Positions 36,965 to 37,291 of a stretch of DNA of 64,000 nt are shown here, one piece after another. The notes beneath the pieces are model-generated. The model saw only the letters and a list, made by a program, of their open reading frames with translations, was not told the origin of the DNA and ran no database searches. How positions within the stretch are numbered: position 1 is the first letter of the stretch; each line of letters opens with the position of its first letter. Location of the stretch: the IMG/VR virus record IMGVR_UViG_3300021426_000066, one strand, 5' to 3'. This stretch comes from a virus (taxonomy: Duplodnaviria > Caudoviricetes). Both the position numbers and the translations under genes were made by a program.

Positions 36965-37098
36965 TGATTGATAAGGAATATGCCTTTATGTTTACGGGCC
37001 GCGTCGCCGCCCGCACACATTGTCATTATTCGGGCGGCGACGCGGCCCGTAAATGATGGAGCAAATAGAGAAATGCATCAGATATTCTGAGTCAATCA
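36965..37098 (+). ncRNA. RT-associated structured unit 2 (perfect 23-bp hairpin)
   Basis: TGATTGA..GAATAT / ATATTC..TCAATCA closing stem; TTTATG 36985; stem 36991-37013/37031-37053; AATGA-N9-TAGAGAAATGC. Confidence 0.85.
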
Positions 37099-37117
37099 AA
37101 AACCTATAGCAAGGTAG

Positions 37118-37291
37118 ATATGCAAGGGATTTATCTTTATGAACCTGGATCCTGGCGGAAGCAGCAGGTGCTGCTGGAGCTTGATCACAGGTTCTCACCA
37201 TGGATCTAAGCTCCAGCAGCACCTGCTGCTTCCGCCAGGATCCAGGTTAAATGAATCAAGTAAAGGAATGCTACGCAAATCCAGAGCATAT
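37118..37291 (+). ncRNA. RT-associated structured unit 3 (perfect 41-bp hairpin)
   Basis: ATATGC..GGATTT / AAATCC..GCATAT closing stem; TTTATG 37136; stem 37142-37182/37208-37248; AATGA-N6-TAAAGGAATGC. Confidence 0.85.

Follow-up and report, generated by a model that had tools for sequence, protein, structure and literature searches.

Mestre et al. (2022) defined UG27 as a class 2 member of the UG/Abi reverse transcriptases (RTs) that is carried by phages and accompanied by two accessory protein clusters (346 and 337) and a putative noncoding RNA (PMC9226505). The published set of UG27 systems comprises 14,118 loci with 82,314 units. A bioRxiv preprint of September 2026 reports UG27 arrays of ~150-nt units and shows, for five systems, that arrays homologous to the one considered here give rise to 50-100-nt hairpin ssDNAs, whose synthesis requires the YSDD motif, the sORF and the bORF (10.64898/2026.09.22.753630). 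Copying begins at AUC within AUC-N7-UANAG and stops after UUYA; the products are described with bulges, and obvious complementarity was not seen. Restriction sites, G:U scarcity and mirrored cassette alleles are not analyzed in that preprint (10.64898/2026.09.22.753630).

Other RT systems invite comparison. DRT2 and DRT9 are also class 2 UG/Abi RTs templated by a neighboring structured noncoding RNA but, as summarized in the preprint, they make long or concatemeric cDNA for host defense, whereas UG27 makes short hairpins and is carried by phages (10.64898/2026.09.22.753630). Retrons likewise use a dedicated RT to copy a hairpin-forming RNA segment (msr/msd) into an abundant ssDNA stem-loop, the msDNA, and over-expressed msDNA with mismatches sequesters MutS, that is, titrates a DNA-binding protein (PMC6868368). 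Retrons are defined by a retron-type RT, an msr/msd region flanked by a1/a2 inverted repeats and a branching G; unlike them, UG27 systems offer several templates per RT in an array, need three proteins and reside in a phage rather than in a cell. Among phage anti-defense strategies, RNA anti-CRISPRs and the DNA-mimic proteins Ocr and ArdA act as decoys, filling the cell with look-alikes of a defense system's ligand. We know of no DNA decoy of restriction enzymes.

A UG27 locus with long perfect stems

The locus examined here lies in a 64,000-nt stretch of IMGVR_UViG_3300021426_000066, hereafter the window, which is phage-like (GC 37.2%), with many small ORFs on the + strand, several tRNAs and a group I intron. 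The sequencing runs listed for the locus are all animal-gut metagenomes, represented by contigs, with no RNA run among them, and the source of the array is a rumen (ruminant-gut) phage. The genes are ordered RT, 133-aa ORF, PC4-like gene, units 1-3 of the array, RTas346, RTas337 and unit 4. The 417-aa RT (34742..35995, + strand) matches the PADLOC model RT_UG27 over residues 2-417 (E 2.6e-191) and Pfam RVT_1; its YSDD catalytic motif (residues 224-227) is intact, and Y224, D226 and D227 are invariant across 13 relatives. The small accessory protein (sORF, RTas346; 37313..37771, + strand; PADLOC PDLC03808, E 3.4e-40) has homologs in 76 of 93 related loci, and the large one (bORF, RTas337; 37870..38811, + strand; PADLOC PDLC03807, E 2.3e-67) in 75 of them. 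With an RT_UG27 bearing YSDD, both accessory proteins and a framed noncoding RNA array, the window holds a UG27 RT system with a four-unit array, a kind of system already published. It has in common with other UG27 systems the RT family, the two accessory proteins and phage carriage, a tandem array whose units are alike in structure, diverse in sequence and gained or lost between close relatives, and a central hairpin between UUYA and AUS-N7-UANAG. Retron models match the window RT weakly (St85, E 1e-11, far below the cut-off; Ec107-like, E 1.5e-10); NF038233 gave 44.7 bits against a cut-off of 235, no Rfam retron family was found at the gathering score, and a retron assignment was rejected. 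At that score Rfam returned no match to the array, its matches in the window being tRNAs and the group I intron only, and the best blastn match among 50,697 phage records was a 65% match to part of the RT.

Two further genes separate the RT from the array, a difference from the usual UG27 relatives. The 133-aa ORF (36007..36408, + strand) is confined to the close clade, is unassigned in function and gave no match in family searches; it is absent from all 93 IMG/VR relatives and present in L094, L096, L101, L104 and L106, contigs of close relatives that we retrieved by protein search (RTs 66-100% identical) and compared with the window. The neighboring gene (36473..36724, + strand) encodes an 83-aa PC4/YdbC-like ssDNA-binding protein (Pfam PF02229, E 1e-11), which could bind the hairpin cDNAs. 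It occurs in every close relative with RT identity of at least 83% and in 1 of the 93 distant loci, a distribution on which we rejected it as a general UG27 partner. The two genes together (36007-36724) form a clade-specific insertion at RT identity of at least 83%; members of the insertion clade are L094, L096, L098, L101, L102, L104 and L106, and L099, L103 and L105 are without both genes.

The template regions of the array, all on the + strand, extend from TTTA to the ATG of the 3′ boundary motif. Unit 1 (36769..36908) has a branched fold that includes a perfect 17-bp hairpin at 36799-36834, the 17-nt arms of which (36799-36815/36818-36834) were 100% complementary in an inverted-repeat scan. 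Unit 2 (36985..37058) consists of a perfect 23-bp stem (36991-37013/37031-37053) with a loop of 17 nt. The perfect stem of unit 3 (37136..37253) reaches 41 bp (37142-37182/37208-37248) with a loop of 25 nt, and comprises a constant base (37142-37152/37238-37248) and a variable mirrored cassette (37153-37182/37208-37237) below a conserved apex (37183-37207). Unit 4 (38860..38937) combines a 16-bp perfect outer stem (38868-38883/38915-38930) with a structured apex, and its longer arms in the inverted-repeat scan measure 28 nt at 86%. The perfect Watson-Crick stems of 23, 41, 17 and 16 bp reported in the initial annotation were borne out by these scans. The 5′ TTTA of units 1-4 is at 36769, 36985, 37136 and 38860, and the 3′ motif ATG-N7-TANAG, a direct repeat family (D1) located by regular expression, is at 37056..37070 (+ strand) in unit 2 and at 36906, 37251 and 38935 in units 1, 3 and 4.

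The hairpins of units 2 and 3 have GC contents of 78% and 61% in a phage of 37%. Perfect hairpins of at least 11 bp with arm GC above 0.55 are, in the array region, just the four unit stems, and a scan of the window yielded one other such repeat, of 11 bp, at 62574 within the tRNA cluster. Folded as RNA, the 571-nt array has a z of -16.6; folded as DNA, the four predicted minus-strand cDNAs reach -28.8 to -63.9 kcal/mol (z -6.6 to -17.5). This structural observation is far beyond chance. The family frame in the window was judged by boundary motifs and folding centers, with the pseudoknot and the basal hairpin outside the scoring, and the same frame was found in 13, then in 93, IMG/VR loci with RTs 50-62% identical. 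The published start motif has AUC and the window has AUG instead. The window stems also depart from those of the usual relatives: they are perfectly paired over as much as 41 bp, and they lack two elements common to most relatives, an outer stem and an asymmetric internal loop, so that handling by the RT could differ. By longest perfect run, the window units rank 1, 3, 9 and 9 of 180, against a family median of 9 bp.

Inspection revealed no T-tract after any stem, and a terminator function was rejected on that ground. A small-peptide reading was dropped, unit 2 being in frame from ATG to TGA and unit 3 not. Complementarity between the cargo and the rest of the window is at chance level, with a longest match of 12 nt, and an exact 25-nt word from the unit 3 arm had no match in IMG/VR. 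Mechanical ORFs (37139-37294, + strand; 36992-37222, - strand) and public gene calls (L096:7012-7221) run across the hairpin units and are most probably false predictions on noncoding array sequence.

Pairing constraint and cassette turnover

Across 183 unit types, G:U makes up 2.7% of 3610 stacked pairs, alongside 266 single mismatches (A·C, 46), so that the stems accept G:U hardly more readily than a plain mismatch. Such scarcity is unusual for a helix that exists only as RNA; it fits a stem that also pairs as cDNA, because a G:U pair becomes C·A there. The scarcity is family-wide and includes stems with short perfect runs. Stems are also GC-rich: their mean GC is 54.7%, the loci themselves average 42.8%, and in 91% of units the stem exceeds its own locus, which makes high GC a family trait.

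The close relatives record how these stems change. Unit 2 is invariant: its 74 nt are 100% identical in L094, L096, L101 and L104, even though the genes on either side diverge by 1-11% in nucleotide sequence. In unit 3 the base (37142-37152) and the apex are kept, and the cassette between them measures 30 nt in the window, 22 nt in L094 and L101 and 12 nt in L106; contigs of run X2 hold a further allele, which compared with the window is partly an inversion of the nested-palindrome center. In all, at least four alleles of the unit 3 cassette are found in phages whose RTs share 94% or more amino-acid identity, each perfectly mirrored in the 3′ arm. Unit 4 shows a compensatory T:A to A:T swap in L094, L101 and L106. 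The cargo of unit 1 is wholly replaced between relatives with RT genes 91-98% identical in nucleotide sequence; within it, a 9-nt patch is mismatched on one arm in L096 and L106 and perfect in L104. More distant members of the set (L099, L103 and L105, RTs 68-78% identical) have perfect stems of 16-32 bp too, and against the family median of 9 bp, perfect stems of 16-41 bp mark long perfect duplexes as a trait of this rumen-phage clade.

Together, the scarcity of G:U and the mirrored two-arm changes between near-identical phages support selection at the DNA level, as the initial annotation had proposed from stems free of G:U pairs; on this evidence the stems are under constraint to remain duplexes that DNA can form. 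Their perfection could plausibly come from selection for pairing and from arm-to-arm DNA copying alike. The L104 locus shows a separate peculiarity: its RT (L104:5001-6299) has 76.5% nucleotide identity to window positions 34742-35995, with 63 gapped positions, as against 94-100% for the neighboring ORFs and for units 2-4, which suggests a recombinant RT inside an otherwise near-identical locus.

Restriction-type sites in the window and the family

The abundance of type II recognition sequences in the stems was central to the initial annotation, and every site it listed is present in the unit named. Counting both arms, unit 3 contains CCWGG four times, GGATCC twice, GATC four times, GCWGC four times and AGCT twice, and unit 2 contains GGCC twice, CGCG twice and GCSGC four times; per kilobase, the listed sites are 4-25 times as dense in the units as in the remainder of the window. 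Because pairing duplicates every palindromic site of one arm in its partner, counts were confined to the 5′ arms and covered palindromic 4-mers, interrupted 5-mers and 6-mers, with mono- and dinucleotide shuffles as controls. The 5′ arms hold 14, 15 and 3 such sites, against expectations of 12.6-15.3, 12.3-13.7 and 3.2-4.3 (p 0.25-0.83), and are thus not enriched: site density in the window stems is no higher than base composition predicts and not beyond chance.

Homologous arrays supplied 515 units, comprising 358 distinct sequences and, after greedy clustering on shared 7-mers, 197 clusters, or unit types; the regular-expression caller picked up some false positives in coding regions, and units longer than 140 nt were dropped in later tests. 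Relative to shuffles of the 197 unit types, palindromic 4-mers occur about as often as expected (z 0.5), those of 6 nt less often (z -3.6) and interrupted 5-mers more often (z 4.1). The expectation that restriction sites would exceed GC-matched shuffles across such arrays accordingly fails for palindromes as a class. Individual words do exceed dinucleotide-shuffle expectations: CCWGG (41 observed, 16.4 expected), AGCT (69, 41.8), GCWGC (40, 20.3), CCGG (46, 26.2), GATC (69, 49.2) and GGATCC (9, 2.9); CTAG and CATG are depleted. In a scan of all k-mers, however, palindromic 4-mers have a mean z of 0.08 against -0.03 for other words, and the most enriched words are non-palindromic: CTGG, CCTG, TAAC, CAGG, TCCTG, TAACC and ACCAG. 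These words recur at set places in the unit. ACCAG is within the internal-loop word TTAACCAG, CCTGG begins the inner stem after an A-rich loop, with GATC often 4-6 nt further on, the apex contains CNGGT and the basal stem AGCT. Recurrence at the same positions in homologous unit types suggests that these words are parts conserved by descent rather than independently acquired sites, and CCTGG, GATC and AGCT look like conserved scaffold. The initial annotation added the caveat that high GC could produce part of the enrichment. In the window, composition matches the counts; in the family, a few conserved words (CCTGG, GATC and AGCT) come on top of it.

In the window background, CCGG (observed/expected 0.14), CGCG (0.25), GGCC (0.43) and CCWGG (0.53) are underrepresented, and outside the array CTGCAG is avoided as well (0.24). 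The avoidance of CCGG, CTGCAG, CGCG and GGCC is a restriction-avoidance-like signature that points to host systems. The backgrounds of the related loci avoid, by mean log2 observed/expected, GATC (-1.66), which is scarce in most of them, GGCC (-1.59) and CGCG (-1.43). If hairpins were decoys tuned to host restriction, the sites that a phage avoids should be overrepresented in them. The avoidance-weighted score instead lies below shuffles, both in the family (z -3.2) and in the window (z -1.2); CCWGG and CCGG are enriched solely in non-avoiding phages, GGCC and CGCG are at or below expectation in stems, and across the family no link emerged between the sites that a phage avoids and those that its hairpins carry. 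GATC is the exception, being modestly enriched in avoiders (53 against 38.4 by shuffling) and in non-avoiders. Units contain 8.8 GATC per kb and backgrounds 1.75; of its 69 occurrences 50 are base-paired, and it is found in ~29% of unit types even among GATC-avoiding phages. In L001, the 12.6 kb of background contain a single GATC and the 612 nt of units contain two. A sequence-specific role for the GATC and CCWGG words is possible.

Origin and use of the predicted hairpin products

We consider it likely that the two stems serve as the central templates of units 2 and 3 in a UG27 array, that they give hairpin-DNA products whose restriction-type sites are driven by composition, and that these products are probable ligands of proteins. 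By homology, the array would be transcribed on the + strand, and the UG27 RT with the small and large accessory proteins would start cDNA at the AUG of AUG-N7-UANAG, just 3′ of the stem, and stop after the UUUA just 5′ of it. The predicted minus-strand ssDNAs of units 1-4, of ~140, 74, 118 and 78 nt, would each fold into a DNA hairpin, and one sequence would have to be foldable in two forms, the RNA template and its DNA product. UG27 membership, the boundary motifs and the published ssDNA from homologous units thus favor the suggestion of the initial annotation that the hairpins are RT-made DNA. The long inverted repeats are probably also homogenized at the DNA level, arm copied from arm by template switching, and the restriction-type sites follow from GC-rich composition and the conserved words CCTGG, GATC and AGCT. 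Most likely the products would bind proteins in the infected cell, acting as DNA ligands whose stem length and sequence have been tuned from one phage strain to another; no evidence singles out type II restriction enzymes as their target. The use of AUG for AUC, the absent outer stem and internal loop and the extreme perfect runs count against the template explanation, and the enrichment of interrupted 5-mers, of CCWGG and of GATC, together with the retention of GATC in avoiders, counts against the reading by composition.

The proposal that the array is a library of restriction decoys, in which abundant hairpin cDNAs titrate host type II enzymes and each unit is tuned to a host system, has fared poorly, and we judge it very unlikely. 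Duplex GATC, GGATCC, CCWGG, GGCC, CGCG and GCNGC are indeed present in the stems, but window counts match composition shuffles (p 0.25-0.83). The window genome does avoid CCGG, CGCG, GGCC and CCWGG, yet the avoidance-weighted score is under that of shuffles in family and window alike, the enrichment of CCWGG and CCGG is limited to non-avoiders, and GGCC and CGCG do not rise above expectation. CCWGG, GATC, GGATCC, AGCT and GCWGC exceed the family dinucleotide shuffles, but the palindrome class does not and 6-mers are depleted, and the fixed structural positions of the enriched words argue for descent; the persistence of GATC in ~29% of unit types even in avoiders speaks for a decoy. Type II restriction enzymes turn over, and a cleavable substrate would therefore make a poor sink. 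The decoy concept is shared with known phage strategies, and the sequestration of MutS by mismatched msDNA is a precedent for titration (PMC6868368), but the site statistics give a restriction decoy no support. We find it scarcely credible that the palindromes act, independently of the RT, as double-stranded genomic elements such as a cruciform, a replication or packaging signal, a recombination site or a terminator. Inverted repeats this long and perfect could extrude as cruciforms, and assemblies break at unit 3, but each palindrome sits exactly within the UG27 frame beside the RT and accessory genes, no stem is followed by a T-tract, similar GC-rich palindromes are absent elsewhere in the 64 kb, and homologous units have been shown to be cDNA templates (10.64898/2026.09.22.753630).

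Two further readings concern the stems. According to one, which we regard as a possible though doubtful account, perfection arose without selection on a duplex product: the palindromes would be young, made by template switching or arm conversion, and a loose cDNA hairpin would suffice, as in most relatives. It suits the family median run of 9 bp, with runs of 23-41 bp in this clade only, and the quick turnover of cassettes between phages with RT genes 91-98% identical, and the nested-palindrome inversion allele and the one-arm 9-nt patch resemble template-switch products. The invariance of the 74-nt unit 2 despite flanks differing by up to 11% nevertheless indicates purifying selection, G:U is scarce throughout the family, short-run stems included, and single mirrored transversions fit compensatory selection as well as they fit conversion. 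The other, a speculation that we consider rather unlikely, is that the stems are a library of hairpin-DNA ligands diversifying in nature, and that their opponent in an arms race is a protein, of host or phage, able to recognize stem length or short words in the RT-made duplex. Its basis is that the constant base of unit 3 (CCTGG, GGATCC) and its apex frame a mirrored cassette that, among phages whose RT genes barely differ, is swapped, shortened or inverted, and that duplex GATC and CCWGG words stay in stems even where the genome purges GATC; the reader could possibly be a GATC- or CCWGG-reading enzyme or any other such protein.

The biochemical output of UG27 is already published, and the window locus, on our preferred reading an array of template stems for hairpin-DNA ligands, could help to find its purpose. 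To the published picture it adds a negative result for the simplest idea, a restriction-site decoy library, and evidence of a DNA-compatible duplex constraint in the few G:U pairs and the mirrored changes. Its clade, with fast cassette turnover and one invariant unit, is a natural allele series, and the GATC and CCTGG words kept in the stems offer a concrete lead.

Palindromes of another kind and other structured elements occur elsewhere in the window. AT-rich perfect hairpins at 20433-20495 and 42479-42536, with arms of 13 and 19 bp, share the word TTTTTGAACC and may be a repeated regulatory palindrome. The group I intron matched at the Rfam gathering score is at 10536-10785 (- strand). In the tRNA cluster at 60-63 kb, one match (62712-62853, + strand) spans 142 nt and may carry an insertion or an intron.
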